NCBI GenBank assembly: GCA_937902735.1
Contig: CALELS010000013.1
Span: forward strand, 134,523 to 198,522
Length of the DNA stretch: 64,000 nt
Direction of reading: 5' to 3'
DNA from: an uncultured Bacillales bacterium
GTDB taxonomy: Bacteria; Bacillota_I; Bacilli_A; RFN20; CAG-826
Part shown: piece after piece, positions 10,274 through 62,747 of the stretch
Layout of the letters: each line of letters opens with the position of its first letter
Numbering within the stretch: the first letter of the stretch is position 1
Position numbers and translations under genes: made by a program
Notes under the pieces: generated by a model
What the model was told of the DNA's origin: nothing
The model's input: the letters and a program-made list of their open reading frames with translations, nothing else
Database searches by the model: none

Positions 10274-11584
10274 ATGTTTAATCAGGAATCTATCAATTTG
10301 TTCGTTAAAAAATTCAATATCTTTTTTAGAACAAAGATGGAGATAGTTATTAAAAGAGAACAAAAGAACTATGATTTGCTCAACACTTTTTTAACCATAT
10401 TCTCTCCAGATAAAATTCCGTCATTAGCTCTTGAAGATTATTGTTTTGCAAAAGGCAATAAGAACACTATGTGCTATTGGATTGATAACACGCTTAATGA
10501 TTTGGGAGACATACACATTAATGGCCAATGTGGCTTTCAGAAATTCGGTATTCAAAATATAAATGGTGAATACGTATTCAAGAGAAGCAATCAAACAAAT
10601 TGTAAATACGGTGATAATTCTGATGACGTTTATAAAACAATTAACTCAGAGCTAATAAAAGTCATTGCTGCAGCTATTGCGTTTAATGCCGACGAAATTG
10701 ACAAATCAATGCTTCCCCAAGTTTTTAAATCGAAACTTTCATATTTATATAACAAAGATCATTGGATGCCTATTTATGTCAATACCGATGTGGATAAGCT
10801 ATTAGATGTTTTTGAAATTCCATATTATCATTCTGAATCTTTGACAAAAAAGCGAGTCAAACTATATTACTTCTACTTAGAAGTGAAAAAGCAAATACCA
10901 TTTATTACTACATGGGAATTTATGAACTTTGTTTATTCTGTTGATGGATATAGAGATTATCTAAGGAATGGTAAACCTGTTAATCATTCAAGCGCAAACG
11001 CCGAAATACGAATGAGTGGCCCAGATGACTCTACGATCAATTCTCAGGACAGCGAAGAAGACGAATTAGATTTGAGCGATGAGGATTTGATTGAATTTGT
11101 AGGCACTTATACTAAAAACGGAACAATTGATAACGGAGTTACTGCTTCCAGAAAGAAAAGAAACACACCAAGAAAGACGGACTACCAAAGAAAGCAGAAG
11201 AATAATGAGCGAAAAGGAACGATTGGAGAAAAGCTTATTTACAATGATGAAGTAAGTAAAATTGCTAATCTGAATCTTAATTTAGAAGTTATTCATAATG
11301 CTGCAAACGATGATACTCTTGGTTATGACATCACTTCTTATGATGAGAAAGGTAAAAAAATCTTTATTGAAGTTAAAACAACTACGAGTGGCAGAATAGA
11401 TGGCTTTCATCTCTCTGTTAAGGAAGTTGAGAAAGCTATTGAATTAGGAGAAAGATTCAAATTGTACCGTGTTTATAATTTAAATGTAAAAAACAAAACA
11501 TACGACGTTGAAATCTTTAATGGTGTAGAACTATTTGAAACCTTCAAACTCAAAGAAACAAGCTTCATTGCTTTAATTAATTAG
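10274..11584 (+). CDS. Two-domain protein: unknown N-terminal domain + C-terminal DUF3883-type PD-(D/E)xK nuclease
   Basis: C-terminal LGYDITSYDEKGKKIFIEVKTTTSGRIDGFHLSVKEVEKA matches the DUF3883 pattern (GyDI...IEVKtt...f.lS.nE). Confidence 0.6.
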   Translation: MFNQESINLFVKKFNIFFRTKMEIVIKREQKNYDLLNTFLTIFSPDKIPSLALEDYCFAKGNKNTMCYWIDNTLNDLGDIHINGQCGFQKFGIQNINGEYVFKRSNQTNCKYGDNSDDVYKTINSELIKVIAAAIAFNADEIDKSMLPQVFKSKLSYLYNKDHWMPIYVNTDVDKLLDVFEIPYYHSESLTKKRVKLYYFYLEVKKQIPFITTWEFMNFVYSVDGYRDYLRNGKPVNHSSANAEIRMSGPDDSTINSQDSEEDELDLSDEDLIEFVGTYTKNGTIDNGVTASRKKRNTPRKTDYQRKQKNNERKGTIGEKLIYNDEVSKIANLNLNLEVIHNAANDDTLGYDITSYDEKGKKIFIEVKTTTSGRIDGFHLSVKEVEKAIELGERFKLYRVYNLNVKNKTYDVEIFNGVELFETFKLKETSFIALIN

Positions 11585-11586: not shown

Positions 11587-12555
11587 ATGTCTAAAAAATC
11601 AATTTACATAGTTGAAAACGAGATTCGTCCTGGCGATTATGTTTTCTTTTATAGTGGAGAAGTTCTTACCGTAACTAAATACGATAAAGACAGACATAGA
11701 ATCACATTTGAAGATGGCTCCGTTAGAGATCTCTATGTCATATATGATAACTATGTTTCAGATATACGTCATCCGGCTGAAAAAGTTACAAAAACAAAGT
11801 CAGATAAGAAATGCAGTTCAAAATCAAAAACTACGAAAGCCAAACCCGCAAAGAGAGAATCCAAGACGTTCTCCCTTTATGCGTTAGCAAGCGGGAAACC
11901 TGGAAAGAAATTCACAATCAAAGCATTTCTGCAAATAACTAAGAACGCTAAGAAAAAGCCAGGTGGAGCCAATACTGAAAAGACAATTAAGCTCGATGAC
12001 GGTTATGTTTATGAAGCTGATTCGCAGCAAGAAATATCGACGCTTAAAAAGTTGATTTCGCATGATGCTTTTAAAAGATTGAGGGGACAATGCATTAATA
12101 TCCCGTATAGATATGGTGGTAAGACCCATAATTACTATCCCGATTTTATCATTCTCACTCAGACCAACAAGATCATTATTATGGAAGTAAAAGAAATTGC
12201 CCAAATGAACACAAAGCAGAATATCAAAAAATATGATGCTCTTAAGAGATATTGTGAGAAGAATGGTTATTTATATATCATGTGCGATAAATCATTTAAA
12301 CCATATGAAAAACTTAGTAAGTTCACTGCAAGTAGTCGAGTGGAAACTGCAATCGATGATGCTCTTGACGAAAAAGGATGTTTTGATTATTCAGATTTTA
12401 AAGAATTGATAAAAGGCAAAGACCATAAAAAGATAAAAGGCATCAGAAACTCGATCGGTATTTATATCAAATCACACAAAAAAGTCAAAATGATTGGCGA
12501 TTTAACATTCAATAGTTCAGATTTCCGTATTATTAGAATCAAGAAGAAGAAATAG
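11587..12555 (+). CDS. PD-(D/E)xK-fold nuclease-like protein with small N-terminal beta-rich domain and K-rich linker
   Basis: YYPDFIILTQTNKIIIMEVKE (PD...EVK). Begins 2 nt after the upstream stop. Confidence 0.5.
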   Translation: MSKKSIYIVENEIRPGDYVFFYSGEVLTVTKYDKDRHRITFEDGSVRDLYVIYDNYVSDIRHPAEKVTKTKSDKKCSSKSKTTKAKPAKRESKTFSLYALASGKPGKKFTIKAFLQITKNAKKKPGGANTEKTIKLDDGYVYEADSQQEISTLKKLISHDAFKRLRGQCINIPYRYGGKTHNYYPDFIILTQTNKIIIMEVKEIAQMNTKQNIKKYDALKRYCEKNGYLYIMCDKSFKPYEKLSKFTASSRVETAIDDALDEKGCFDYSDFKELIKGKDHKKIKGIRNSIGIYIKSHKKVKMIGDLTFNSSDFRIIRIKKKK

Positions 12556-12684
12556 GGGCAAAACGCTCCTTTTTTTACATTCTTATATGCAAATACGTAT
12601 TATGAACCCTGGTCAAACCCATGAGTGGTCAACTACTACACTGGGATTTTAAAGTAATATTATATATAATATTAAAATTGCATA

Positions 12685-12760
12685 AAAACATATTCCCTGA
12701 TACACCGGTTGCCTATGATATATAGTGCGTAATTAAACCCCATGTCAGGGAATATGTTTT
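12685..12760. repeat. Perfect 16-bp inverted repeat AAAACATATTCCCTGA / TCAGGGAATATGTTTT flanking a 44-bp spacer (MITE-like or large operator); third arm copy at 37329..37342
   Basis: Read directly from the sequence at 12685-12700 and 12745-12760; TCAGGGAATATGTT recurs at 37329. Confidence 0.6.
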
Positions 12761-12798
12761 ATTGTCCAATTATGCCTTCGTTATATTTTTTACGCCAT

Positions 12799-12842
12799 AG
12801 TATTACGATTTGGTAATATTACGGTTTTGAAAATATAAAATC
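12799..12842 (+). promoter_or_regulatory. Second copy of duplicated promoter-like leader (TTGGTA-N18-TATAAA)
   Basis: AGTATTACGATTTGGTAATATTACGGTTTTGAAAATATAAAATCC aligns with 1528..1570 in the same register. Confidence 0.45.
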
Positions 12843-12904
12843 CGTGCATGTGTGCGTTAATTATTTGTTTATGGCACATATCATACGATAAAATAAATAA
12901 AGAT

Positions 12905-13981
12905 ATGGATTTCGCTAAAAGGATGGAAATAGCCAAAAGGCAAGAAGAGAGGCATAGAGCTCTTTTAGAAAAAAGAGAACGCTTTACCGATGCCGAAGAA
13001 AAATATAGACAGTTCTTTTTAGATATAGATAAAAATGAAGCTCATCTTTTTGGCGATTTGCCAGAAAGAAAGACTGAATCAACTCGTCGCATTATAGAGC
13101 TTCTTCTTAAGAATCCTGAAGAATATAAAAGAAAAACAGCTGAGATTCATGCCAAATACCCCAAACTAACATCTAGTGAATTCACAGAAGCATTGAAAAC
13201 AATGTGGAAGTATCAATACGAATACTATAAAGAGCTGGTTGATTATTTAAATATGACCAACGAAGATTATGAGACTCTTTTCTCACCAGAATATAAAAAG
13301 AAAACATTCGAAATGGCCAAAAATGGGCTTTTCCTGTTTTATGAAGAAACTCCTGACATGGAAGAGTTCTTGACTGATGACACAGACAAAAATATAGAAT
13401 TTGTTTTGAATTATATCTCAATGGATGATTTTGGTCCGTTGAGACAGATGCTCATGTATTTGTATACAGAAGAAGATCCTTCAGACTTTTTAAGAACTGT
13501 TAAAACTAGAGATTTTAAAGAAGCGATTGCTTGCTTGATAAATGGTTGCTATGGATCTTGCGCTAGAACAATGCTTGCCTTGATTGAAAACGAACACACT
13601 AATGCCTCAAATATCAATAGAGATTTCTTTGAAGATAAAATTACTAAAGGCGCGGATAGAGCTATTGAAATATCCAAACAACTTGGTGAGATTCATGTTT
13701 CTTATTTCGCGGAATGTTGGAAATTAATGAATGATTATTATCAAGAAATAACGGCAAATAGCGCAAAAAAATCAACTAGATATATAAACAGAAATGAAGT
13801 TGTGCATGGTGTTTATTGGGATGCTATTTTGCCTGACAAAAAGGCGTGTACAGAACTAGTTTTGTTTTACGTCAGTTTTAAAGCGATGTCGTTTTTGCTC
13901 CAAGAAGTTTATGATATGAGAGCAAGAGTTAATGAGGAATTTGATTTAGTGATTGCAAAGGAGTTATCAGAACGTGCTTGA
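12905..13981 (+). CDS. Alpha-helical protein with a candidate HEPN-type Rx4H motif (RNEVVHG)
   Basis: RYINRNEVVHGVYWD lies near the C-terminus. The track start at 12848 sits almost at the predicted TSS, so the ATG at 12905 is preferred. The HEPN assignment rests on the motif only. Confidence 0.4.
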   Translation: MDFAKRMEIAKRQEERHRALLEKRERFTDAEEKYRQFFLDIDKNEAHLFGDLPERKTESTRRIIELLLKNPEEYKRKTAEIHAKYPKLTSSEFTEALKTMWKYQYEYYKELVDYLNMTNEDYETLFSPEYKKKTFEMAKNGLFLFYEETPDMEEFLTDDTDKNIEFVLNYISMDDFGPLRQMLMYLYTEEDPSDFLRTVKTRDFKEAIACLINGCYGSCARTMLALIENEHTNASNINRDFFEDKITKGADRAIEISKQLGEIHVSYFAECWKLMNDYYQEITANSAKKSTRYINRNEVVHGVYWDAILPDKKACTELVLFYVSFKAMSFLLQEVYDMRARVNEEFDLVIAKELSERA

Positions 13982-15236
13982 TTTCTTGAATTATTTAGGG
14001 AATAAGGTAGTTGGGCGTTATAAAACCGTTGAGTCAAACATTAGAAACCGCTCCAATTCTTTTTACGACTCCTTTCTTGATCTTTTAGAAGATACTGTTA
14101 AAGCCATTTTAATGAATGAAGATATTGGCTATGACGGCAGAACTTGTGGAGAGATATTAAGAGAACCAGATGTTAATAATTTCTTTAAACATAAAGCTAA
14201 TATAGATAAAGATCTTTATTCGAAAGTCGGAGACTATATCAAAAAGATAAACGAACACAAACACCATAATGAAAAATATGTCAATGTCGATACTGTCATT
14301 AACTATATGTCTACATATTATGGGTTTGTAACTCCTTATCTTATTTACAAAGGCATAGAAATAAAACCATTTAATGAGGCCTATTTTAGAGGCATTTATG
14401 GCGTTACTTTAGAAAGAAGCAAAGAACTTGACAATGTTTCTCAAAAAGTGGATGAGTTTGTTTCAACTACTAATGTAAAAATTGATGAGCATTCAACTAG
14501 AATTGCTGCACTTGAGGCTTGGTCACAAGAATTTAACAGAAGGCAAATGCAACCTCAACCACAGTCGAGTGTTAAACCGCCAGAGAAAAAGAGTGAAAAA
14601 GAGGTAATGCATTGGTTCTTTAGAACCTCAAAAAAGAGCTGGCGTTGGTTCGGAAATCAATTCGAGTTGAATAAAAGCAAATCACTAGCTATTTTTTCTC
14701 ATGTCTTGCTCTTGGTTCTTGGACTGTTAACAACTATTGTGACATCTATTTCTACAAAGATTTATACGACATTCACCCTATTCGAAAACATTTGGCTTAT
14801 CTTTGGAATCCTCTTGTTAGTTTATGCGGTTAAAGCAAAACTTACATACGAGAGCGGAGACTTAGCTAGAAATACCAATTATAAGTATAAACAAGACCAA
14901 TTTGGGTTATGGAATCCGGGAAAAGAGAAAGCTGTATTCAAAGTGTTTAGGTGGTTAGGAATAATAGCGGTAGTAGGGAACATTATCTATATTTGGGTTC
15001 AATCCAGTAATATAAGCTGGCTTGCAACGATATTAGAGGTGCTGTTCTTAGGCTCAATCATCTTCTCGTTCTTCATGAACGTTTCACTATTTGCGCAATA
15101 TACCATTATATATTTAGAAGGAAAAAATATGAGCGGAACCGAATATGTAAAACTTGTTTGGGACCCAATGATTAAACAATTCCTTGTGGAAGAAGAATAT
15201 AAGAAGAAAATGCCGTTCTTATATGACAAATATTAA
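13973..15236 (+). CDS. Membrane protein: unique ~180-aa N-terminal cytoplasmic domain + coiled coil + 4-TM domain paralogous to ORF 1624..2463
   Basis: An AAAGGAG RBS lies 9 nt before the GTG at 13973, overlapping the upstream stop (the track uses TTG at 13953). C-terminal homology includes SWRWFGNQFE, TFTLFENIW, VLFLGSIIFSFFMN and EEEYKKKMPFLYDKY. Confidence 0.65.
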
Positions 15237-15247
15237 TGCATCAATAA

Positions 15248-15274
15248 AGACATCGTGAAAGCGGTGTTTTTTTG
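15248..15274 (+). terminator. Putative intrinsic terminator
   Basis: ACATCG-TGAAAG-CGGTGT stem (one G:U pair) followed by TTTTTTT, 12 nt after the stop at 15236. Confidence 0.4.
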
Positions 15275-15333
15275 ATATGATAGATATTGCATCGTAATGC
15301 TCCGGAGCCTCGCAATAGCTTAGCAAAGGAGAA

Positions 15334-15552
15334 ATGAAGTTTATGATGCAAGATTCTATGTCGGCTCGCGCTGGCAAAAATCTTAAACGCATTATCAAGG
15401 AAAAAGGCTTCACTCAGGAACAATTTGCTGAGCAAATGTATGTAGATCCAACAACTGTTCGCAGATGGTTGGCACACGGGATCAAGGATATTGATACCAT
15501 CAGTACAATAGCCGAAATCTTCGATATAGACGTTATGGACATCCTTAAATAG
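15334..15552 (+). CDS. XRE-family HTH transcriptional regulator
   Basis: GFTQEQFAEQMYVDPTTVRRWLAHG is a classic HTH_3 pattern. Confidence 0.75.
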   Translation: MKFMMQDSMSARAGKNLKRIIKEKGFTQEQFAEQMYVDPTTVRRWLAHGIKDIDTISTIAEIFDIDVMDILK

Positions 15553-15569
15553 GGTGTCTTTTTGTTTTT

Positions 15570-15588
15570 GCACTATTATAAATAGTGC
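15570..15588. promoter_or_regulatory. Palindromic operator candidate GCACTAT-TATAA-ATAGTGC (NrdR-box-like half-sites) upstream of the nrd operon
   Basis: 7-bp perfect inverted arms. The half-sites resemble the NrdR-box consensus acaCtAt/aTaGtgt, but the centre is 3 bp longer than canonical. Confidence 0.4.
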
Positions 15589-15655
15589 ATTTGTTGCGCT
15601 ATTTTGAGTGTTGACAATAATTCAGAATATTGGTGTCGAAAGGAAACAAACACTA

Positions 15656-16071
15656 TGACACCAAAAAACAAATACTTCAAAGTTACAGCCAAATGCGGAC
15701 ACGTTGGTAAAGGCAATTATGTCCCAGTGGCATTCGCTGTTAAAGCAGAAAGCAGAAGTGCTGCATCTCAAAAAGTTATGACTTATCACAGAGTCAAAAA
15801 ACAATTAAACGATGCAATCATCTCCTGCGAAGAAATTGATAGAGATTCTTATAAGGAACTCATGCAGGCGAACAAAGAATTCAAATATCTCCAATGCAAA
15901 TGCAATAGACAACAAAGAGAGATTGAAGGATTCGATTCACTCATCTGCAAAAACGAATACAGAGAAGAAAGACGCAAAGTCGAACCAGCCAAATCTATGA
16001 AATATAGAAGAGCAATCTATGAGTTGGGCGGCAGAAGAAGCTCTCTCTCACTCTGCTACGGGGAGGACTAA
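15656..16071 (+). CDS. Small Cys/His-containing protein (AKCGHVG...NY family), first gene of the nrd operon; truncated paralog at 40007..40294
   Basis: AAAGGAAAC RBS. ~85% DNA identity to 40160..40294 (reverse strand) over the first ~130 nt. 4-nt gap to nrdG. Confidence 0.55.
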
Positions 16072-16074
16072 ATC

Positions 16075-16515
16075 ATGAAGATCTATATCAATTCTATTCA
16101 ATTTAACAAGAGCCTTGTTGATGGTCCAGGAGTGAGAACATTAGTTTTCTTCCAAGGCTGTGACATTCATTGTCCAGGATGTCAAAATCCATCTTCTTGG
16201 GATATTACAAAAGGAACTGAATATTCTGTCAAAAACCTATCAAAAATCATAAAAGATGGCACTTTTAACGGGAAAATCACACTTACTGGTGGTGAGCCAC
16301 TTATGCAAAAAGAAGCGTTAGTGGAGCTATTAAAAGAGCTCAAAGGTTTAGATGTCATAGTTTATACAGGACATCAAAAAGAAGACGTTCCAAATGAAGT
16401 ATGGAAACTCACTTCTTATGTCAAATGTGGTCCTTTCATTGAGCGACTTAAAACTACAATCAAGCCTTATGTGGGATCTAGTAATCAAGAATTAATTAAA
16501 TCGGAGGGCAAATAA
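16075..16515 (+). CDS. nrdG: Anaerobic ribonucleoside-triphosphate reductase activating protein (radical SAM)
   Basis: FFQGCDIHCPGCQNP (CxxxCxxC) at the N-terminus; size ~146 aa; directly upstream of nrdD. Confidence 0.85.
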   Translation: MKIYINSIQFNKSLVDGPGVRTLVFFQGCDIHCPGCQNPSSWDITKGTEYSVKNLSKIIKDGTFNGKITLTGGEPLMQKEALVELLKELKGLDVIVYTGHQKEDVPNEVWKLTSYVKCGPFIERLKTTIKPYVGSSNQELIKSEGK

Positions 16516-16517
16516 AT

Positions 16518-18224
16518 ATGAAACAAAACACTAATGAAAATGCAGCAAATAGAACCAGTTATGTTGGTCATGTCTATACGGTTGGTGAAAGAGCTTATAA
16601 ACAAGAAATACTTAACTCTCTTCCTGCTGAATGGAAAGATTTGCACACAAAAGGTTATATCCACATCCATGACTTAGATGCTTATGGATTAACTTATAAC
16701 TGTTTAACTTTTAATCTAGTTCCTAACTTTCCTTATGAAAGATTTAAAGATTTCTCTGAGCAAAGAAAGATAGTCAGATTATTTGATTTCCTTAAAGAGT
16801 TGTTTACCAAGATGGGAAATGAGCAATCTGGTGGTATGGCTTTTGCTAATTTTGATAATGAAATGGCAGAAGTTATTACCAAGCTCGGAATCACAATCAA
16901 TGATGTCAATCTTTCTTTAATCAAAGATGCTATCGGAGAGCTTATTCTCTGGTGCAACGACAACCATACTAGAATGGGTCAAACCAGCTACTATGTTACT
17001 TTTAACATCGGCTTAGCGGATAGTGACTTAGCTAGATCTATAGCTTCGTTCCTCCTTGATGAATTTTACACAGCTGGTGACCTTATCTATAAACCAAACA
17101 TTGTCTTTAAAGTCCATGCTGGTCATAACCGCTTCGCCGATGATCCTAATCATTATCTTCTTAAAAAAGCTTTACTATGTACTGCTAAGAAGATGATTCC
17201 TACCTACCTTCTTTGCGATAGTGCTCCAGATAAAAACTATGATCCATATCGCTTAGCTGTTATGGGTTGCCGCACAAGAGTTGTAACTGACGTCTATGGC
17301 TGTGAAGGCTCTATTGGAAGAGGCAATATTGATAACATTTCCATTAATCTTCCTAGACTTGCTTTAGAGATAGTCGAGAAATGGCCAAATATCGATGTGG
17401 ATGAAAGAGTCCGCAAATTTAAAAAGAGATGGAATGAAGTAGCAACTGTTACTAAAGACATCCTTTTGGATAGATATTACAAAACCTGCAAAAGACAAGC
17501 TGATGATTTTCCAACCAATTCCGAATATAAACTTTGGTGCAAAGATTTCACAACAGTTGACTCTTTAGAAGAGGTCTTTAAACACGGCACATTATCGCTT
17601 GGTTTTATTGGATTAAGTGAGGCTGTCGAAGTTTTAACTGGTGCTAAATATTACTCAAGCGCAGATAACTACGTTGTTGCATTGGGAATTGTCAAACACA
17701 TGAGAGATTTCTGTGATTTCTTAAGATATGACTACAATCTTAATTTCTCTTTGCTTGCTACTAGCGGTGAACTCATTTCAGGAAGATTTATCGATATTGA
17801 TAAAGAAATCTTCAAACCAGAAGTAGATATTTTCGCTAAAGGTTACTATACCAACTCGTTCCATATTGATGTAGATAGCGGACTTCCTGCTTACAAAAAG
17901 ATTCAAATGGAAGGATTATTTCATGAACTCTGCAATGGTGGATGCATCACGTATGTAGAGCTAGGTGAAGCTCCTTTAGGAAATTATGAAGGTCTACTTG
18001 AATATGTTGAAGTTGCCATCAAAGCAGGTACCCATTATTTAGGCTTTAATTTCCCAAAGGACATCTGTGATGAATGTGGCACAAGTGGTGTTTTTGACGA
18101 ATGCCCAGTTTGTCATAGCAAGCGCATCACTAGAATCAGAAGAGTATCTGGATATCTCGAGATATTAGATGGTTTTACCAAAGGCAAAAAGGCAGAAGAG
18201 AAAAACAGGAGGAAGAATGGATGA
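16518..18224 (+). CDS. nrdD: Anaerobic (class III) ribonucleoside-triphosphate reductase, compact phage-like form
   Basis: C-terminal zinc ribbon CDECG...CPVCH followed by the glycyl-radical motif RRVSGYLE. Confidence 0.9.
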   Translation: MKQNTNENAANRTSYVGHVYTVGERAYKQEILNSLPAEWKDLHTKGYIHIHDLDAYGLTYNCLTFNLVPNFPYERFKDFSEQRKIVRLFDFLKELFTKMGNEQSGGMAFANFDNEMAEVITKLGITINDVNLSLIKDAIGELILWCNDNHTRMGQTSYYVTFNIGLADSDLARSIASFLLDEFYTAGDLIYKPNIVFKVHAGHNRFADDPNHYLLKKALLCTAKKMIPTYLLCDSAPDKNYDPYRLAVMGCRTRVVTDVYGCEGSIGRGNIDNISINLPRLALEIVEKWPNIDVDERVRKFKKRWNEVATVTKDILLDRYYKTCKRQADDFPTNSEYKLWCKDFTTVDSLEEVFKHGTLSLGFIGLSEAVEVLTGAKYYSSADNYVVALGIVKHMRDFCDFLRYDYNLNFSLLATSGELISGRFIDIDKEIFKPEVDIFAKGYYTNSFHIDVDSGLPAYKKIQMEGLFHELCNGGCITYVELGEAPLGNYEGLLEYVEVAIKAGTHYLGFNFPKDICDECGTSGVFDECPVCHSKRITRIRRVSGYLEILDGFTKGKKAEEKNRRKNG

Positions 18225-18787
18225 TTTATTACATAGCAGATACACACTTTAGAGATCAGTCCATTTTTGATAAATGTAAGAGACCTTTTAAGTCAATCCT
18301 AGATATGGATGAGACCATTATTAACAATTGGAATAATAGAGTTAAGGATGACGACGTTATCTATGTTTTAGGTGACTTAGTTAGAGATGATGATGTTTCG
18401 GCTATTCAAATCTTTAATAGATTAAAAGGCCATAAGCACTTAATCGTTGGAAACCATGACCACCAATTATTAGACGTCATCAAAAGCTCTAACTTGTTTG
18501 AATCAATCAAGTTCATAGATTTGGTTATCGATAACAATCGCAAAGTCTGTGTTTGCCATTATCCATTAATGGATTGGATGGAATTCAATAGACAAGGCAT
18601 TCTAGTTTACGGTCATATCCATAATAAAACTGCAAAGAATGGCGATGCCTATAAACAAATAAAAGAGTTTTATAAAACATTACCTGCATATAACTGTGGT
18701 GTCGACGTATGCGATTTTGAACCAAAGACATTAGATGAGCTTATTCGTTTAAAGGAGGAAAACAAAGATGAACCATATATCAATTGA
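18221..18787 (+). CDS. Calcineurin-like metallophosphoesterase
   Basis: IADTHF, GDLVRDDD, GNHDHQ and GHIHN motifs. Confidence 0.75.
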   Translation: MIYYIADTHFRDQSIFDKCKRPFKSILDMDETIINNWNNRVKDDDVIYVLGDLVRDDDVSAIQIFNRLKGHKHLIVGNHDHQLLDVIKSSNLFESIKFIDLVIDNNRKVCVCHYPLMDWMEFNRQGILVYGHIHNKTAKNGDAYKQIKEFYKTLPAYNCGVDVCDFEPKTLDELIRLKEENKDEPYIN

Positions 18788-19346
18788 AGGCATGGATGGT
18801 GTTGGAAAGAGCACTGTCTGTCAACTTTTAGCAGAAAAGACTGGTTATACTTTTGTAACTAAGCCGCTTCATTATTTAACCGATTCCGATGATAGCAAAG
18901 ACTGGCCTAACTATTTCAGAGCCAGAGATATAGCTAACAATAGTGAAAATCGAGACTTTTCCGCATGGTTTTATGGCCTAGGCTTAATCTACAGCTACGA
19001 AAGATTCAAAAATCAAAACATCATCACGGATAGACATATCGTATCCAATTATTGTTGGAGTGGTGTTCCATCTAATATGGACATCTTTGATTTGCTTATT
19101 AAGAAACTTGGTGCGCCAACACTAACAGTGATTCTATATGCAAATGAAGATACAGTTCGTAGCAGACTCTTGAAAAGAGATCTAACAGATAGTGATTTAA
19201 AACGCGTTGATAAGACTGAAAAAGTCTATGAGAGAATGATAAGCTTCTGCGAGCTAAAACATTTCCCATACATCGTTATAGATACTTCAAAACTTAACCC
19301 AGAACAAATAGTGGACATCGTTCTTAAAAAGATGGAGGTGCTTTAA
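18768..19346 (+). CDS. P-loop nucleotide/nucleoside kinase (thymidylate-kinase/dNK-like)
   Basis: IEGMDGVGKSTV P-loop of the TMPK/dNK family. Confidence 0.65.
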   Translation: MNHISIEGMDGVGKSTVCQLLAEKTGYTFVTKPLHYLTDSDDSKDWPNYFRARDIANNSENRDFSAWFYGLGLIYSYERFKNQNIITDRHIVSNYCWSGVPSNMDIFDLLIKKLGAPTLTVILYANEDTVRSRLLKRDLTDSDLKRVDKTEKVYERMISFCELKHFPYIVIDTSKLNPEQIVDIVLKKMEVL

Positions 19347-21799
19347 TGAACTATAAATACTCAGAAGACATGAAATATTTAGCTCTTTATTGGGCTCTTA
19401 GATTTGTTGAAACAGAAGAAGACATAATGGTCAAAGAATATAAAGGCGGTTATAAAATAACCATTGATGCAGAGCACCAGTATGTTGATTTTGGCAATCG
19501 TATAACTATGATTGGCGACAAGACATTATCTTTAACCGACCATAAATCGTTTGTTGTCCTCGAATGTGTAGATAAACTTCTATCAATGGGTTACCTTCCA
19601 TCAGAGATCATCATAGATCTTCAAAATGAGTTCGATATTTATGCAAACAATTTATATATCAAATGCTTTGAATGGGGTCATATGGATGATAGCAATATCA
19701 CTCCAAAACCAGGTACATTTCTTTCGATTAAATATGAATCTAGATTAATCAGTGGAATCATTGAAAGAAAAACCGAAATCCGTGATGGATATGATACTTT
19801 CGAATATGGCATCTTTGATTTGAAAAAGAAACAACCCGTGTATCAATTAAGACATAAGAACTCCATCAAAACGGATAATAAAGACTTTGTTATCGAAGAT
19901 GATGTTTTCGTTAAATATAACGGTAATGATAAAAAAGTAGTCATACCAGAAGGCATTAAAGCTGTTGGGCCATGTGCGTTTTGGGATAATCAATCAATAG
20001 AAGAAGTGGTGCTTCCTAATTCGCTTATTAGCTTAGGCGGAGACACTTTCTATAATTGCAGAAATCTTAAAAAAGTAGTCATTCCATCTAAGGTAGAGAA
20101 AATTGCTAACAATCCTTTTGCTGGATGTCCTTTACTATCTTTAGAGAACCATTCAAAAAACTTTAAATTAGTGGATGATGTGCTCTTCGATAAAAAGAAA
20201 ACGATCCTTATCTATTACTCAATTTCTAAAAAGAATGAGAAATATAAAATCCCCTATGGTGTATCCATCGTTGGTAAGCATAGTTTCTTTATGGCGGATA
20301 ATCTTAAAGAAGTTATTATTCCATCAACAGTTAGAAAACTTGAAAACAATCCATTTTCTGGCTGTAGCAAACTAGAAGTCATTAATAAGTCTTCCTATAT
20401 TAATATTATTAATAAGGTTATATATAATCGCTTTAAATCAAGTGTCCTTGGTTGCATCAATTCAATTGAAGCAGATGAGCTTGTTTTAGAGCCAGTTAAA
20501 AGCATTGGTAGAAACTCCTTTTGGAATTGCAAAGGCATTAAGAAGATTGTTTTACCTGCTACATTGAAGCAGATTGGTTATAACCCTTTTGTTGGCTGCT
20601 CCAACATTCATTTTGAAAGCCATAGCGACGAGTATGTTGTTGATAATGACATCTTATTTGATAAGAACAAAAACAAAATAGTGTGCTATCCAGCTTGGAA
20701 AGCGGTCGGAGATGTTTATATTCCTGAATCAGTAATTGCTCTTGAAAGAGGCGCTTTTTCAGGATGCAATAGAATGACAGGCATCAACCTCCATAATGTA
20801 AACGTTATTAGCAAATCATGTTTTACAAACTGCTTATCTCTAGAAAGCATTTATTGTAGTGACTTAATCAAATACATTGGCGAATGGGCATTTGCTTATT
20901 GCACGGCGCTTAAGAACATTTCCATTTCACCTAAAACAAAAGTCGACAACAACGCTTTCTCTAATTGCAATCCATTAATTGAGATTAGAAATAATCTAAA
21001 TAACTATGTTATTGAATCTGATAACTTATTCACTTTAATGAGTATGACCGCTAATTATAGTGGAAGGATTGATTCGATTGTTATTGACCCACCATATAAC
21101 TCAAATATCGATTATATCGGCTATAAAGATTCCAATTACGATAATGGTTACATTTCTTTTATGAGGGAAAGACTAATTATTGCTTATCAGCTTTTAAGTA
21201 ATAAAGGTTTCTTGATTATCAACATAGATGATGGCGAGTTCAACAGCTTAACAACTCTATGCAAAGAGATTTTTGGTGATGATCTCGTTTCAACGCATAA
21301 ATGGAAGAAAAAGCATCCATTCTTCGATGCCAACAGGGTTGTATTGAATCCAAATAAAGTTCAAACAGATTTTGAGAACATCATTATTTGTAGAAAAACA
21401 GCTGAAGCAACCCTACATTCAATTTATCAACCTTACATTGATAATGGTGTTTTGAAAGAAAAGGAAACTAATGTACCAGATGTTTTTGATTGCTTTGGAA
21501 CAACGTCTTCTGCAAAAGATGAAATCTGCGAGTTATTTGGTACACGCGAGTATTTCTCAACACCTAAGCCGGTTAAGTTGATTAAAGAATTTGTTAGAGC
21601 AACCACTAATAAGGACTCAATTGTTGCTGATTTCTTCGCCGGTAGTGGAACTCTTGGACACGCAGTTTATGACTTAAACAAAGAAGATGGCGGCAACAGA
21701 CATTTCGTTTTAATTTCAAATAATGAATCTGATATTTGCCGCAAAGTAACTAAAAAGAGAATGGAACTGATTGGTTCAGCGTTCCAATTTCTTGGTTAG
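19346..21799 (+). CDS. Fusion protein: N-terminal domain + ~6 BspA-type leucine-rich repeats + C-terminal beta-class N6A/N4C DNA methyltransferase (PF01555-like)
   Basis: Repeats of the form VVIPEGIKAVGPCAFWDNQSIEEVVLPNSL...FYNCRNLKKVVIP. MTase motifs are IVIDPPYNS (IV), FSTPKPVKLIKEFV and DFFAGSGTLGHA (I), in beta-class order. Confidence 0.8.
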   Translation: MNYKYSEDMKYLALYWALRFVETEEDIMVKEYKGGYKITIDAEHQYVDFGNRITMIGDKTLSLTDHKSFVVLECVDKLLSMGYLPSEIIIDLQNEFDIYANNLYIKCFEWGHMDDSNITPKPGTFLSIKYESRLISGIIERKTEIRDGYDTFEYGIFDLKKKQPVYQLRHKNSIKTDNKDFVIEDDVFVKYNGNDKKVVIPEGIKAVGPCAFWDNQSIEEVVLPNSLISLGGDTFYNCRNLKKVVIPSKVEKIANNPFAGCPLLSLENHSKNFKLVDDVLFDKKKTILIYYSISKKNEKYKIPYGVSIVGKHSFFMADNLKEVIIPSTVRKLENNPFSGCSKLEVINKSSYINIINKVIYNRFKSSVLGCINSIEADELVLEPVKSIGRNSFWNCKGIKKIVLPATLKQIGYNPFVGCSNIHFESHSDEYVVDNDILFDKNKNKIVCYPAWKAVGDVYIPESVIALERGAFSGCNRMTGINLHNVNVISKSCFTNCLSLESIYCSDLIKYIGEWAFAYCTALKNISISPKTKVDNNAFSNCNPLIEIRNNLNNYVIESDNLFTLMSMTANYSGRIDSIVIDPPYNSNIDYIGYKDSNYDNGYISFMRERLIIAYQLLSNKGFLIINIDDGEFNSLTTLCKEIFGDDLVSTHKWKKKHPFFDANRVVLNPNKVQTDFENIIICRKTAEATLHSIYQPYIDNGVLKEKETNVPDVFDCFGTTSSAKDEICELFGTREYFSTPKPVKLIKEFVRATTNKDSIVADFFAGSGTLGHAVYDLNKEDGGNRHFVLISNNESDICRKVTKKRMELIGSAFQFLG

Positions 21800-21811
21800 G
21801 AGGAAGCATAT

Positions 21812-21991
21812 ATGTTCGATGTTCCAACTTGGGCTACTGTATTAGGAATAATCAATACAGTGATTAGCATGATAGCTTGTCCTATCATTGCAGGGTATAA
21901 GAACAGGAGCGTAGCCGGATGGTTTTTCGGAGGGTTATTCCTTGGACTTATTGGACTAATTATCGTTGCTTGTTTGCCTAGAAAAGACTAA
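21812..21991 (+). CDS. Small (59 aa) two-TM membrane protein, paralog of 4309..4491 (below ORF-track size cutoff)
   Basis: An AGGAGGAAGCATAT RBS precedes the ATG at 21812; stop TAA at 21989-21991. Sequence MFDVPTWATVLGIINTVISMIACPIIAGYKNRSVAGWFFGGLFLGLIGLIIVACLPRKD. Confidence 0.5.
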   Translation: MFDVPTWATVLGIINTVISMIACPIIAGYKNRSVAGWFFGGLFLGLIGLIIVACLPRKD

Positions 21992-22041
21992 ATGAAAAAG
22001 ACCACATTTCCTAAAAATAACTGGGATTTGTGGCCTTTTTG

Positions 22042-23781
22042 CTATAAAACAACAACTTTATACGCTAATGTTTGCGTCTTGAATGGGTCCTTACATTTGA
22101 TGTATCCATCTAGGATTGATGGTAGTGCAGCAATGGCTTGTCTGCTCTCTCTAAATTTATCTAGAGTGATTTTATTTGATGCATCGATTGTCACTACAAT
22201 TTCATGTTTATCAACCGCGATAATACGGTAGAAGAAGCAGTCCATCATTTCTTTGGTAAGCATCTTATAAGTTATTTCTTTGCCTTTTAAGATATCAATC
22301 ATCTTGGATAAGCGGACTTCAGCTTCTTTTCTTAAGACGGTCTTATCTTGGACCCTTTGTATTTCTGCGACTACGTTTTGATAATCATTAACTAAATCTT
22401 GGTAACGTGTATCCAATGTCTTTCTCATCTCAACCGTATTAGCGGCTGCTCTTTCTTTTAACAAGAAGTCGATATCTCCATTAAGTTGGCTCTTCTTTTC
22501 GAGTAGCCTATTGAGTTCTTCGTCAACATCTGTTTCTTCTGATAACGTAGATGTTAAAGCTTTAGATAGTTTATTAAAGGCATTAGTGTTACCCATATAA
22601 AGTTTATTAATGATATCAGCACATGCTCTTAGAATCATGTTTTCACTAAGTGGTTTTGAGTGGCATCGATGGGTTTTAGTTGGATAGATATAAGTATTGC
22701 ATTGGAACATAATCTTTGGCTGTCCATCAGGATAACCTTTATACCATGTTCTTCTTTTATAGGATGCTCCACAGCCATAGCAGATAATCATGCCGCTTAA
22801 TGGATGTTTGGTGTTGTATTTACTTAAATCTCTATTCTTCCCAACTGCTTTAGCGGATTGAGACTTAAGTCTAGCTTGCACTCTATTCCATTGTTCTATA
22901 GAAATAATGGGTTCATGTGCTCCCTCGACTTTATACTTTTGTCTTTGACCTCTATTTTCTCTACGCTTATGGGTAAGATAATCAACGGTATAAGTCTTTT
23001 GGAGTAATAAGTCACCCATGTATTTTTCGTTTCTAAGCATTCCTAGAACAGTGGTGTTATTCCAATTGGTTCTACCAGTCATGGTTTTAATGCCACGCTT
23101 TTTAAGTTCTCTACATATGGTGTCTGGTCCCTTGCCTGAATCATATAAATCAAATATCAAACGAACCACTTTAGCTTGCTCTTCATTGATGACTAATTGC
23201 TTTTTATCTTCGCTTAGGTCATAGCCCATGAAGTTTGATGGTGCTACAAATGGCACACCTTCACGCATTTTCTTTTGTACGGTCCATGTAACGTTCTCTG
23301 AAATGTGTCTACTCTCTTCTTGAGCCATAGAGCTAATTATTGAAAACATGAATTCGTTTTTAGCATCAAAGGTGCTTAGTCTTTCATTATCAAAATAAAC
23401 TTCGACACCTATTTCTTTCAGTTCACGTATTGTCTGGATTGTTAAGACAGTGTTTCTTGCAAATCTTGATATCGACTTAACTAGGATTAAATCAATCTTG
23501 CCAGCTTTGGCATCTTTAATCATTTGATTGAAACCGTTTCTACCTTTCGCTGACGTGCCGGATATACCTTCATCTGCGTAAACCTTTACTAATTGATAAT
23601 CAGGATTCTCAAGGATCCTTTTGGTCCACTCTTCAATTTGGTTGTTAAAAGAAGTGGATTGCTCTTCGCTGTCAGTACTAACACGACAGTACGCCGCAAC
23701 GCGTTTTACTCGCGACTCAGATAGATCTTTATCAAATATGCTATCCACCTTTGTAGGAGCAATAATTTGTACATTATTCAT
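22042..23781 (-). CDS. Large serine recombinase (resolvase catalytic domain + recombinase domain + Zn ribbon + coiled coil)
   Basis: AAYCRVSTDSEEQ catalytic Ser motif; CYGCG...C zinc ribbon; ~579 aa. Confidence 0.9.
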   Translation of the reverse strand: MNNVQIIAPTKVDSIFDKDLSESRVKRVAAYCRVSTDSEEQSTSFNNQIEEWTKRILENPDYQLVKVYADEGISGTSAKGRNGFNQMIKDAKAGKIDLILVKSISRFARNTVLTIQTIRELKEIGVEVYFDNERLSTFDAKNEFMFSIISSMAQEESRHISENVTWTVQKKMREGVPFVAPSNFMGYDLSEDKKQLVINEEQAKVVRLIFDLYDSGKGPDTICRELKKRGIKTMTGRTNWNNTTVLGMLRNEKYMGDLLLQKTYTVDYLTHKRRENRGQRQKYKVEGAHEPIISIEQWNRVQARLKSQSAKAVGKNRDLSKYNTKHPLSGMIICYGCGASYKRRTWYKGYPDGQPKIMFQCNTYIYPTKTHRCHSKPLSENMILRACADIINKLYMGNTNAFNKLSKALTSTLSEETDVDEELNRLLEKKSQLNGDIDFLLKERAAANTVEMRKTLDTRYQDLVNDYQNVVAEIQRVQDKTVLRKEAEVRLSKMIDILKGKEITYKMLTKEMMDCFFYRIIAVDKHEIVVTIDASNKITLDKFRESRQAIAALPSILDGYIKCKDPFKTQTLAYKVVVL

Positions 23782-23794
23782 TTATGAATACCTC

Positions 23795-23974
23795 CTACAC
23801 ATATACATCACTCTTGTTGGTATCATTATCAACAATTATGTCCCCTAAATGCAGGGTAGACTTGATACGAGCGTATTCATCTGGTGTGAGTAATTTTTCT
23901 TTATAGAAGTATGATAGGATCGCCACGATAATAGTGGCTTCCATTTCCTTATTATTAATATTTTGTATAGACAT
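23795..23974 (-). CDS. Small protein upstream of the recombinase (start at the internal ATG with a GAGGAG RBS)
   Basis: GAGGAGATTTTTT-ATG context; MSIQNINNKEMEATIIVAILSYFYKEK... Confidence 0.4.
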   Translation of the reverse strand: MSIQNINNKEMEATIIVAILSYFYKEKLLTPDEYARIKSTLHLGDIIVDNDTNKSDVYV

Positions 23975-24685
23975 AAAAAATCTCCTCGCCATTAAAGGCA
24001 AGAAGACATACGAGCAGTAAAGAATGCTCAATCTTTTCAACGCACCCTAATCTTATCACACCTAGCAGTGGTTCCCTAGATGCCCACAGGACATCAATTT
24101 CTATTAATAAGTCAAATAAGTCAAAAGCATTTACACACGCGATAACTTTAATAAATCCGATGATTTCTGCTTACGCGCGTAAAGAAAAAATTGCAAAAAT
24201 CGCTCCCATTGGTCCCATAGGGTTTGAGCGGTACAAACAAACTTTTTGGAAACCCGTCTTTTTAAATCTCACTTGTCCCTAGTGAGGTGAAAGGTGAGGT
24301 CAATGAGGTCATTTCTAAACTTTTTGTAAAAATCACTAAAAGTGAAAAAGAAAATGTGAGCAGAACAATGAGATAACCGCCATTAACTAGTGAGGGGATT
24401 AGAGTGTTTGCTTAAAAAAGTTAAAAGCTATACCCCAAAACAGCCCCACAAATGTGTGTAGTAGTGAAGAAGCTTAAGAAAGTTTGCTTCTAGGGTTAAC
24501 GATCTATCTTCTAAATGTCCTTATATCGCCTGAGATAGTAGACAAAATCTGCACACTTGGGTAACTAATTCGCCATAAACTGGTGAAAAGATGGTAGAAG
24601 GGGGGTCAAAAGACCAGATTCTTCTCCATATATAGTGAGGCTGATGTCTTGCCTAAAAAGACAAATCTTAAGAAAGGATAGTACT

Positions 24686-24937
24686 ATGAACAAAACTAAC
24701 GCAATGAGAATGTATCTTGTTATCAAAAGAGAGACTCTAGGTCTATCTATGCGCGAGACGTCACGCTTGTTACAGATGGATTTTCATTATTATTACCGTA
24801 TTGAGACTGGACTAATAACACGTGTAAGTTTTATCTCTTTGTGTAATATCGCGATGGTTTTAGGGATTAGTTTAAATGATCTCTTCAATATGGAGACGAT
24901 ATATCAAAAACAAAGCAAAGGAGCAGTGGATTTATGA
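24686..24937 (+). CDS. XRE-like HTH regulator, divergent from the recombinase
   Basis: KRETLGLSMRETSRLLQMDFHYYYRIETG. An AAAGGA RBS lies before the ATG at 24686. Confidence 0.55.
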   Translation: MNKTNAMRMYLVIKRETLGLSMRETSRLLQMDFHYYYRIETGLITRVSFISLCNIAMVLGISLNDLFNMETIYQKQSKGAVDL

Positions 24938-25025
24938 CAATCTTTTTAACGCAAAACCAGAAGACATAGTCGTTTAGTTTGCTGCTCCTAGCTTACTTGT
25001 TGGATTTAATAGGAGGCTAGTAGCT

Positions 25026-27224
25026 ATGAAGTTTTACAAATCCAATGTGTTGGGTATGCCTAGTAATACTAGATATCCTCACGAATTCGAAGCAAAACAA
25101 ACGACAAACAAAGAACAAATACGACAAATATTTAATAAGGACTATGTATGCGCTACATACAAGTATGACAAAAGGGACTGTGCTAACTTTCTAGTTTCAG
25201 ATTGTTTGGCTCTAGATTGTGACAACGACCATAGTGATGATCCAAATGCTTGGATTACTCCTGAGAACCTCATCAGTGAATTTGATAATGTGTTCATGAT
25301 CTTCCATATGTCTAGAAACAACATGAAAGAAAAAGATGGCAAAGCACCTAGACCTAAGTTTCATGTCTTTATGTCGATGGAACCAATTAAGAATCCAGAA
25401 GCATACGCGGAATTAAAAAGAAAAATTAATACCATATGGCCTTATTTTGACAAAAATGCAGAAGATGCTGCTCGTTTCTTCTTTGGCACTGAAGAACCTG
25501 AAGTTATTGTCTCTCCTGGTAAATTAACCATAAACGCTTATATCGACGCTTATGAAAAATTCGCCAATATGGACGATGATAATCAAGTCATTAAGTGTGG
25601 AGAAAGAAACTCAAAGTTATCTAAGTACGCTGCGATTATCTTAAAAAGATATGGCGATACTGAAGAAACCAGACAACTCTTCGAGGACAAAAATGAAAAA
25701 TGCTGTGAAGAACCACTTGAAGATTCTGAATTAAACCTCATTTGGAATAGTGCTCTTAAATTCTATAAAACAAAGATACTCACTAATCCGAATTATGTGA
25801 AACCAGATGAGTATGGTGGCGAATCCTATGTACCAAGTGACATGTCTGATGTTGGACAAGCATTAAAGTTTAGTGAGCATTATGGCTCTATTATCGCTTA
25901 TAACCCTGCGATGAAGTTTGTGGTCTATGACCAAAATAGATGGGTTGAAAGTGAAGAGCTTGCTCTAGCGGTCTTACATCAATTCACTAATAAACAAATC
26001 ATGGAAGCTTTTAAGCTCTATAGAGAAGCTAGTGATAGTGGTGATAAAGAAAGAATTGATAAGGCGAAAGCATATCTAAAATTTGTAACTAGCCGCAGAA
26101 ACTCTAACTATATCAACGCGACATTAAAACAAGCTACTCCTTATATAGGTGTTGATACTGAGAAATTCGATGCAGATCCGTTTCTCTTATCTACTCCTGA
26201 AGGTGTTTATGATTTAAGGATTGGTCCTTTTAGGCCAAAGCCACATAAACCAGAAGACTATATCACCAAAATGACTGCATGTTCCCCTTCTTTTAAAGGT
26301 AAGGACATCTGGGAGGAATCTTTAAATAAGATATTCTCAAACAATAAGGAATTAATTAGATACGTACAGCAGTGCTGTGGCTTAGCGGCAGTAGGAGCGG
26401 TATATGTTGAAATGATGCTTATTGCTCACGGTGAAGGCGGTAATGGTAAATCAACATTCTGGAACACCATCTTAAAAGTGTTCGGTGACTATGGTGGGAC
26501 TCTTAACAGTGACAATCTATTCGTAAATAACGGTAAATCATCTAGATTTGAAAAAGCGTTCCTAAAAGGAAAAAGACTAATCATTTCTAGCGAAAACGAA
26601 CAGGGAGCAAGGCTTAATGATGGAATGATCAAACAGCTATGTTCCACTGATAGAATCAAAGGTGAAAAGAAGTTCAAAGATGAGTTTGACTTTACTCCTT
26701 CTCATACAATGATTCTTTACACCAACCATTTGCCTAAAGTCACCACTGGTGATGATGGCACATGGCGTAGACTAAAAGTTATTCCGTTTACTAATAAGTT
26801 CACAGGCAATAACGACATTAAGAACTATTCCGAGTATCTATTTGAAAACTGTAAGGAATATATTCTATTTTGGGTCATGGAGGGTGCGAAAATTGTCATA
26901 GACAATAAATTCCACATCGAAGAGCCAAACGTCGTTCTAGAAGCTTGTAAACGATATAAGAATGAGAATGACTGGTTACATCAATTCATCAATGAGTGCT
27001 GTAAGCTCGGCGAAGATGAAAAAGTCAGCTCTGGAGAGCTTTATCTAAAGTATAGAGATTATGCTTGGCATAGAAATGAATATGTTCGTCCAAGTAATGA
27101 TTTCAAAGCAGCGATGGAGCTTGCTGGATTTAAAACGACTCATCCTCATAACAAAGTTATCTATCATGGCATCCGATTACTTACTGATAATGAATTGGGT
27201 GTCGAGGATGACTTTCTAAGTTAA
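25026..27224 (+). CDS. Phage/plasmid primase-helicase (P4/D5 family, SF3 NTPase C-terminal domain)
   Basis: LIAHGEGGNGKSTFWNTI Walker A, typical of P4-family primase C-terminal domains; 732 aa. Confidence 0.8.
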   Translation: MKFYKSNVLGMPSNTRYPHEFEAKQTTNKEQIRQIFNKDYVCATYKYDKRDCANFLVSDCLALDCDNDHSDDPNAWITPENLISEFDNVFMIFHMSRNNMKEKDGKAPRPKFHVFMSMEPIKNPEAYAELKRKINTIWPYFDKNAEDAARFFFGTEEPEVIVSPGKLTINAYIDAYEKFANMDDDNQVIKCGERNSKLSKYAAIILKRYGDTEETRQLFEDKNEKCCEEPLEDSELNLIWNSALKFYKTKILTNPNYVKPDEYGGESYVPSDMSDVGQALKFSEHYGSIIAYNPAMKFVVYDQNRWVESEELALAVLHQFTNKQIMEAFKLYREASDSGDKERIDKAKAYLKFVTSRRNSNYINATLKQATPYIGVDTEKFDADPFLLSTPEGVYDLRIGPFRPKPHKPEDYITKMTACSPSFKGKDIWEESLNKIFSNNKELIRYVQQCCGLAAVGAVYVEMMLIAHGEGGNGKSTFWNTILKVFGDYGGTLNSDNLFVNNGKSSRFEKAFLKGKRLIISSENEQGARLNDGMIKQLCSTDRIKGEKKFKDEFDFTPSHTMILYTNHLPKVTTGDDGTWRRLKVIPFTNKFTGNNDIKNYSEYLFENCKEYILFWVMEGAKIVIDNKFHIEEPNVVLEACKRYKNENDWLHQFINECCKLGEDEKVSSGELYLKYRDYAWHRNEYVRPSNDFKAAMELAGFKTTHPHNKVIYHGIRLLTDNELGVEDDFLS

Positions 27225-62684: not shown

Positions 62685-62747
62685 AGTTTTCTCCTTTTTT
62701 CGCCTTTATAAAGGCGTGCGTTTATGTTAACAAGTAAATAAAATAAA

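Follow-up and report, generated by a model that had tools for sequence, protein, structure and literature searches.

A BspA-type leucine-rich-repeat array fused to a beta-class DNA methyltransferase in a nucleotide-metabolism operon of gut bacteria

Solitary DNA methyltransferases (MTases) shape restriction evasion, horizontal transfer and epigenetic regulation, while their accessory domains are poorly understood. Fusions at the N-terminus of MTases of the Pfam family PF01555 exist in phages and plasmids, ParB-MTase being one example. Here we describe a protein of this general kind, encoded in a stretch of 64,000 nucleotides (hereafter the window) from an uncultured Bacillales bacterium (contig CALELS010000013.1, positions 134,523 to 198,522 of the forward strand). 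The gene, at 19346..21799 on the forward strand of the window, specifies 817 amino acids in which Pfam matches and alignments distinguish an N-terminal domain (N-domain), an array of BspA-type leucine-rich repeats (LRR) and a beta-class MTase; we refer to it as LRR::MTase, and to its first two parts together as N-LRR. Like ParB-MTase and the orphan MTases of phages, LRR::MTase carries an accessory N-terminal module on a solitary beta-class enzyme of mobile DNA. In common with the phage enzymes it occurs in phage DNA (phage NatCom_17901 and the IMG/VR contig L088) with no cognate nuclease. Unlike ParB-MTase, its accessory module consists of a nuclease-like domain plus LRR, and is also found as a separate subunit.

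For the catalytic half, the closest described systems are the Mod subunits of Type III restriction-modification (RM) systems, which are its best sequence and fold matches and share with it the beta-class order (DPPY before FxGxG) and a DGGNR tail after motif I; in contrast to them, the window enzyme has a much smaller target-recognition domain (TRD), no terminal extensions and no res gene, and bears 548 residues in front. The small Type II beta-class MTases also resemble it, with target-normalised template-modelling scores (TMt) of 0.70-0.74 for M.BceJIV, M.MboIIA and M1.HpyAVI, 0.63-0.64 for M.RsrI and 0.51 for the CcrM core, although their identity to the window MTase (16-22%) is below that of the Type III Mods and none has an LRR or nuclease-like partner. 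By analogy with these enzymes, the catalytic half is plausibly self-sufficient for catalysis.

For the N-terminal half the parallels lie elsewhere. BspA-type LRR_5 proteins of known structure (4fs7 of Bacteroides ovatus, 4gt6 of Faecalibacterium prausnitzii, 4h09 of Eubacterium ventriosum, and PcpA, 4cp6) have the same repeat type and share 'dgvLy.kd..Li.yp' hairpin inserts with the window LRR, but they are secreted or surface proteins, whereas the window protein has no export signal, is tied to a DNA enzyme and belongs to an operon of cytoplasmic nucleotide metabolism. The Type IIB enzyme BsaXI (8w0p), the Type IIG profile PDLC03624 and HsdR_N domains present a domain of apparently similar fold at the extreme N-terminus, before the methyltransferase; compared with the Type IIB and IIG enzymes, however, the window protein does not conserve the catalytic D...(D/E)xK residues, its MTase is of the beta and not the gamma class, and an LRR replaces the helical connector.

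A full-text literature search found no paper describing proteins that combine LRR_5 with an MTase, or an operon joining NrdDG, a kinase and LRR::MTase, and a broader search returned only general papers on restriction-modification and BREX, none of them on this architecture. The report on the phage order Ca. Heliusvirales names only 'a DNA methyltransferase' among its common protein clusters (PMC11283538). The first-pass annotation of the window had supposed the architecture to be undescribed, which agrees with these searches; it is not rare, on the other hand, being common in gut metagenomes.

The fused protein and its two-gene relatives

LRR::MTase is encoded by a single uninterrupted open reading frame of 817 codons, from an ATG start and without any internal stop or frameshift. 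Pfam recognises LRR_5 (PF13306, E=6e-52) in four stretches between about residues 190 and 560, and N6_N4_Mtase (PF01555, E=2.2e-34) at residues 575-780, both scoring far over their gathering scores, so that the fusion and the two domains proposed from the first reading both stand; NCBIfam, PHROGs and PADLOC are concordant on the two parts. A whole-chain AlphaFold2 (AF2) model reached a predicted template-modelling score (pTM) of 0.67, with the LRR abutting the MTase and almost no linker between them. By inspection only, no signal peptide, lipobox or anchor was seen: the N-terminus (MNYKYSEDMKYLALYWALRFVETEED) is polar and acidic, without a hydrophobic h-region, and the C-terminus is the MTase, in agreement with the earlier remark that no export signal was obvious. 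No simple-sequence repeat capable of Type III-style phase variation is present in the gene.

A search of 5.8 billion proteins, clustered at 90% identity, returned more than 120 clusters carrying the full-length form. All have both Pfam domains, their identity to the window protein lies at 57-98%, and, a few truncated entries excepted, they are 805-822 amino acids long. In a scan of one genome per species, relatives were found in at least 102 species-level genomes. Carriers are mostly uncultured gut Bacilli (RF39-, Mollicutes- and Acholeplasma-like), Clostridia (Christensenellales, Borkfalkiaceae) and Treponema, with a single isolate, Ureaplasma ceti, among them; several odd taxonomic labels on short contigs of metagenome-assembled genomes may be binning errors. 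Public names go no further than 'leucine-rich repeat protein', 'DNA modification methylase' or 'uncharacterized'. A representative search with the whole protein was swamped by giant LRR_5 surface proteins and returned few representatives of the family, and no full-length LRR::MTase protein was found on plasmids.

In a sister clade, at 45-48% identity, the same protein appears as two adjacent genes (at least 19 loci, including phage NatCom_17901). The first gene encodes the N-domain and LRR (527-567 amino acids, matching query residues 6-549) and the second the MTase (276-292 amino acids, matching residues 551-815), the break point falling always at the same residue, 549/551. The junction takes the form of an in-frame TAA with an ATG one codon later (L061, L065), of a start one base past the stop in another frame (ATG in L069; TTG in L072 and L074), or of an 11-nt ATG...TGA overlap (L001). 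By their sequence these junctions are genuine gene boundaries, tightly coupled in translation, and not sequencing errors. A frameshift artefact is ruled out for the family by the more than 120 clusters, and for the split clade by boundaries that are real and of three types. Where the window protein reads '...IEIR-NNLNN-YVIESDNL', the split form has '...IEIR*HMENLIIEGENL', and the fused form corresponds to the loss of the split-clade stop codon.

A stop between the halves had been named in the first-pass annotation as a finding that would break the fusion. None exists in the window, but one is met naturally in the sister clade, as a pair of coupled genes, and this natural two-gene form strengthens the idea that the LRR and MTase halves cooperate; the pattern of fission and fusion is the strongest evidence that N-LRR and MTase act together. 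As a separate observation, the N-domain+LRR genes at L071 (9974-11602) and L067 (9980-11602) have no MTase gene after them; pyrG and fba lie directly next in L071, and the N-LRR protein on its own may persist at these loci or be decaying.

The MTase core (20990..21796, residues 549-817) is assigned to the Type III Mod-derived beta class by Pfam, PADLOC and Foldseek. Its PF01555 score is 119.8 bits against a curated cut-off of 26.7, PADLOC MTase_III matches at E=5e-46 and phrog_67 ('DNA methyltransferase') matches as well. The catalytic motif IV, DPPY (residues 581-584, 21086..21097), and the S-adenosylmethionine-binding motif I, FAGSGT (residues 764-769, 21635..21652), are both invariant in 14 aligned homologues (alignment A1), and the order is that of the beta class because DPPY stands N-terminal to FAGSGT, as had been read from the sequence at first. 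The top PDB matches by sequence as well as by fold, including the Foldseek structural matches, are Type III Mods, namely Mbo45V (7dsu), Helicobacter pylori Mod (6k0w) and EcoP15I (4zcf).

The nearest annotated relative, an Enterococcus faecium plasmid Mod of 561 amino acids (WP_002346636.1) followed by its Res helicase, is 44-55% identical to the window MTase in two conserved blocks flanking the TRD. Between these blocks the unaligned gap measures 57 residues in the window MTase against 148 in the Mod; the whole core comes to 271 residues, and the N- and C-terminal extensions of the Mod are missing. The reduced TRD-like insert (residues 646-735, 21281..21550) is 37% identical to that of the split clade and 61% identical within the fused clade. 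These comparisons point to a core descended from Type III Mod subunits and pared down. The window has no res gene next to LRR::MTase, and across 87 loci no helicase family occupies a conserved position; with both the large TRD and the res gene missing, the MTase fails as a Type III system. Neither res nor another nuclease gene adjoins it, hence the enzyme is solitary, in line with the orphan MTase that the first reading had raised as a possibility. The size and fold of the core fit the complete small Type II beta-class enzymes M.BceJIV, M.MboIIA and M1.HpyAVI, so a short TRD alone is no proof that recognition has been outsourced. DPPY rather than SPPY suggests an N6-adenine target. From this motif and the Type III ancestry, on family knowledge, we predict N6-adenine specificity.

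The N-domain (19346..19879, residues 1-178), for which Pfam offers no family, had been left as unknown. Its AF2 fold is confident (predicted local distance difference test, pLDDT, 83; pTM 0.82), and the top three Foldseek matches in the PDB are all the RM subunit of the Type IIB enzyme BsaXI (probability 0.89-0.98, query-normalised template-modelling score, TMq, 0.43-0.48, E=0.02-0.1). PADLOC REase_MTase_IIG (PDLC03624) aligns its positions 17-85 with residues 22-89 of the N-domain at E=5e-7, and hhalign aligns residues 18-91 with a protein carrying Pfam HSDR_N/HSDR_N_2 at 97% probability. These three signals are independent and individually weak, and they point in the same direction, giving moderate evidence for a domain with the PD-(D/E)xK fold of Type IIB/IIG/HsdR enzymes that has decayed.

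The hhalign match ends ahead of the catalytic strands. The HSDR_N relative runs on into the canonical nuclease core 'D...IIECK', where the window protein has 'D97...YIKCF', its ExK position reading K-C-F. Across 68 family sequences no conserved D...(D/E)xK triad was found (D97 in 44/68, K106 in 32/68 and E109 in 32/68), while E73 is invariant and F69, V70, L72 and W110 are invariant or nearly so. The loss of the catalytic motif is read directly from these columns, and an active N-terminal nuclease was ruled out by this residue conservation. The N-domain is moreover essentially family-specific, since a profile search matched almost only fragments of the same LRR::MTase family; the profile found nothing among PDB sequences and nothing significant among the viral structures of BFVD. 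Two deviating proteins were noted alongside: P0338 (283 amino acids) joins the first ~60 residues of the N-domain to the MTase just past DPPY, an internal deletion without the catalytic motif, and P0336 (305 amino acids), from marine sediment, continues from an N-domain of 27% identity into a radical-SAM-like segment.

The LRR solenoid (19880..20989, residues 179-548) comprises about 11 canonical LRR_5 units of 22-24 residues, 10 recognised by regular expression and the unit at residue 480 by eye, so that the earlier count of about six was too low. The units are arranged as three '...NNPF(A/S/V)GC + beta-hairpin' super-repeats, which account for three hairpin inserts, and then a terminal block of units; the AF2 model has about 14-15 solenoid strands, and the best PDB sequence matches are the four BspA-type structures already named. 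Among 68 aligned family members, at least 95% identity is reached in 22% of LRR columns against 21-35% for the MTase core, which makes the LRR as conserved as the catalytic part and points to strong purifying selection rather than the diversification of a receptor-binding array.

The operon with nucleotide-supply genes and its surroundings

Five genes precede LRR::MTase on the forward strand of the window: u155 (15604..16071, a conserved unknown first operon gene of 138-155 amino acids, in 45-46 loci), the NrdG activase (16075..16515, Pfam), the anaerobic ribonucleotide reductase NrdD (16518..18224, Pfam E=4e-106), a metallophosphoesterase (18221..18787, Pfam and phrog_547) and, immediately upstream, a gene resembling deoxynucleoside monophosphate (dNMP) or thymidylate kinases (18768..19346), which matches the thymidylate kinase and dNK families of Pfam. 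A terminator-like hairpin lies at 15537-15559, just upstream of u155, and a GGAGG Shine-Dalgarno sequence stands 8 nt ahead of the LRR::MTase ATG, which overlaps the kinase stop codon as TAATG (19334..19348, forward strand). The gene thus carries signals of co-transcription with the genes of nucleotide supply.

This arrangement is strictly kept. Among loci with enough upstream DNA, the kinase gene is adjacent in 75 of 76, at a median gap of 17 nt, NrdD is present in 66 of 66 and NrdG in 61 of 62; the phosphoesterase occurs in 48 of 87 loci. The gene order is identical in 66/66 loci, and LRR::MTase is nearly always the last gene of the series NrdG-NrdD-(phosphoesterase)-dNMP kinase-LRR::MTase. 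A gene of the XRE type with a helix-turn-helix (HTH) also belongs to this near-invariant block, which spans 15358-21799 in the window and recurs in the 87 related loci.

Some further features of the operon genes were recorded. The kinase-like protein also matches two PADLOC candidate-defence models, PDC-M51B (E=1.7e-16) and VakA (E=1.3e-12). A gene for an RNase_T/DEDDh-like exonuclease of 376-400 amino acids (phrog_192, 'DNA polymerase exonuclease subunit') directly follows LRR::MTase in 23 loci (for example L002 at 12550-13734 and L089 at 12549-13751) and is lacking in the window. At 40007-40294, on the reverse strand, u155 recurs as a partial, inverted second copy, and a 47-nt arm of the two copies (15673-15719 and 40242-40288) is 79% complementary. 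Searches of PHROGs and Pfam left the conserved unknowns upstream (u155, u427 and the 271-, 390- and 423-aa proteins) without a match, and no Rfam element was found within 14000-25500.

Outside the block the flanks vary, and include GmrSD, DUF4238, HNH, membrane proteins, Type III/SNF2, DUF2130, HTH proteins, resolvases and housekeeping genes. An identical protein (P0091) was found with different flanks, and at L008 a copy of the block is 97-99% identical, yet the gene just upstream of it is only 51% identical. Phage NatCom_17901 (Ca. Heliusvirales), from human faeces, also carries the block in its complete genome, beside two serine recombinases and upstream of the tail and head genes. Scans of IMG/VR found one fused-clade contig (L088), likewise with two serine recombinases, and no split-clade locus; many loci have no phage genes at all, and a megablast of window positions 1-24500 against phage genomes gave no match. 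With such IMG/VR counts the notion of a typical phage gene is unsupported.

Recombinases are direct neighbours in the window, as they are in 9 further loci. In the window LRR::MTase is followed by a convergent large serine recombinase (22042-23781, reverse strand), which has a paralogue at 54344-56080 on the forward strand, 46% identical and in the opposite orientation. Between the two lie about 30 kb occupied by defence and mobile genes, among them a D5 primase, a Type ISP RM system (28042-32889), a helicase combining UvrD with a Top1 Zn-ribbon, SoFic, AbiEi/AbiEii, Fic, a DUF4143 ATPase, Schlafen/AlbA_2 and a Methylase_S with an HSDR_N_2 protein. The region 22042-56080 may represent elements integrated in tandem, or an island able to invert or excise. 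The block itself has the behaviour of a portable DNA-metabolism cassette set in islands rich in recombinases and defence genes.

Upstream of the cassette, a NOV_C-domain protein (10274-11584, forward strand) matches PADLOC PD-T4-1 (E=2.7e-29) and is followed by a protein with a TnsA-like endonuclease domain (11587-12555, forward strand); the two are likely a defence pair. A 427-aa protein at 13953-15236 (forward strand) joins a soluble N-terminal half to several predicted transmembrane helices and found no family assignment; a paralogue of its N-terminal part lies at 1624-2463 on the forward strand, and relatives of it (genes for 271 and 423 amino acids) precede the cassette in many loci and in phage NatCom_17901. 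At the far end of the window, a 300-nt direct repeat of 94% identity (62594-62893 and 63161-63460) overlaps two adjacent paralogous reverse-strand open reading frames of ~150 amino acids.

What the N-terminal module may do

The reading we prefer, at a probability of about 0.5 for the whole, is that LRR::MTase serves as the solitary MTase of a mobile DNA-metabolism cassette, with N-LRR as its non-catalytic adaptor. The protein would be a cytoplasmic N6-adenine DNA methyltransferase without a cognate nuclease, whose catalytic core, of Type III Mod descent, has neither the large TRD of that family nor its terminal extensions, and is no longer accompanied by Res. The leading 548 residues, a putatively nuclease-dead PD-(D/E)xK-like domain followed by a BspA-type LRR, would form a non-catalytic partner module, kept as a separate coupled subunit in the sister clade and joined to the enzyme here by loss of a stop codon. 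Expressed as the last cistron of a portable u155-NrdG-NrdD-phosphoesterase-dNMP kinase operon, the enzyme would methylate adenines in the element and in host DNA whenever the cassette is expressed, and this methylation may mark the DNA as self against restriction systems or act epigenetically. N-LRR, in turn, would dock or regulate the MTase by protein-protein contacts or oligomerisation, without catalysis.

Several observations weigh against this picture. The role proposed for N-LRR is drawn from the fission/fusion pattern and from conservation, and two loci hold an N-LRR gene with no MTase gene downstream. Recognised viral contigs rarely contain the cassette (1 IMG/VR locus, 1 GenBank phage), and in some genomes it sits between housekeeping genes. 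It may therefore belong to the host core, as an operon with integration hotspots on its flanks, rather than being mobile cargo; in that case an epigenetic or replication-linked role would be more likely than anti-restriction. For N-LRR itself, protein docking or regulation is our leading but tentative choice; DNA targeting follows as somewhat less probable, oligomerisation would be unlikely, and some other function more so. Whether the nuclease-dead domain and the LRR make up a new kind of accessory subunit, be it an LRR-based target-recognition or ruler module for DNA, which would be the first in a prokaryotic modification enzyme, or an adaptor physically coupling methylation to the machinery of deoxynucleotide (dNTP) synthesis and replication that the operon itself encodes (NrdDG, dNMP kinase), we regard as conceivable but doubtful.

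The specific proposal that the LRR, with or without the N-domain, binds DNA in place of the Type III TRD, or acts as a ruler or clamp along about 20 bp, would gain from the narrow TRD gap (57 against 148 residues in the nearest Mod), from the near-absent linker and the pTM of the whole chain, from an LRR as conserved as the catalytic core, and from the obligate vicinity or fusion of N-LRR and MTase. The window LRR has an isoelectric point of 8.7; its net charge, on the other hand, averages 0.0 (standard deviation 4.9) over the family, so it is not consistently basic, conserved K/R positions number no more than 8 among its 370 residues, and the mean charge of the N-domain over the family is acidic, at -5.2. 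The argument that a basic LRR must bind DNA was dropped, its charge not being conserved across the family. M.BceJIV, M.MboIIA and M1.HpyAVI, beta-class enzymes of the same size, are moreover sequence-specific unaided. We consider this proposal unlikely. A step less probable is that N-LRR is a sensor or decoy in phage-host conflict, binding a phage or host defence protein or poisoning restriction enzymes that cut as dimers, with the MTase regulated by this recognition or coupled to it in counter-defence or defence. LRRs commonly serve as sensors that recognise proteins, the nuclease-like domain retains invariant core residues despite the loss of its catalytic ones, the flanks are rich in defence genes (the window itself holds Type ISP and Type I-like systems) and a temperate phage carries the cassette. 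Against this, the LRR is highly conserved and not diversifying, unlike the sensors of an arms race, the constant partners of the gene belong to nucleotide metabolism rather than to defence, and no PADLOC defence family covers the LRR part.

Far less credible is a single-chain RM enzyme akin to Types IIG and IIB, with an active N-terminal nuclease and the LRR as spacer between cleavage and methylation. The N-domain does resemble the BsaXI nuclease domain and the Type IIG profile, and the order nuclease, spacer, MTase mimics Type IIG enzymes, but the scattered D97, K106 and E109, the beta rather than gamma class of the MTase and an hhalign match that stops short of the catalytic strands make it very improbable. 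We give the least credit of all to a surface or secreted BspA-type adhesin or effector carrying an MTase, for instance a host-directed nucleomodulin of Mollicutes-like gut bacteria. LRR_5/BspA domains typically belong to surface proteins, and many of the hosts are Mollicutes-like; the NCBIfam match to the adhesin HupY/LrrG, however, is weak (64 bits against a cut-off of 1250), the operon partners are cytoplasmic nucleotide enzymes, the split form has a stand-alone MTase and the cassette occurs in a phage. A surface adhesin was ruled out by the missing export signal, as judged by inspection, together with the operon context.

Gut Bacillota of humans and animals (RF39-/Mollicutes-like Bacilli and Christensenellales) carry the family in abundance, as does at least one widespread lineage of gut phages. 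It pairs a minimal MTase, derived from Type III systems, with an LRR solenoid, a fold normally devoted to extracellular protein recognition. Occurring naturally both split and fused, it offers a ready-made experiment on the contribution of an LRR to a DNA enzyme. A functional connection between dNTP supply and DNA methylation is hinted at by the strictness with which the gene is linked to those of an anaerobic ribonucleotide reductase and a dNMP kinase. Should the LRR prove to read DNA, or to tether the enzyme to replication, DNA modification would be targeted on a new principle; and if N-LRR is indeed an accessory subunit, the cassette would represent an undescribed and widespread module of 'precursor supply + methylation' in gut Bacillota and their phages.

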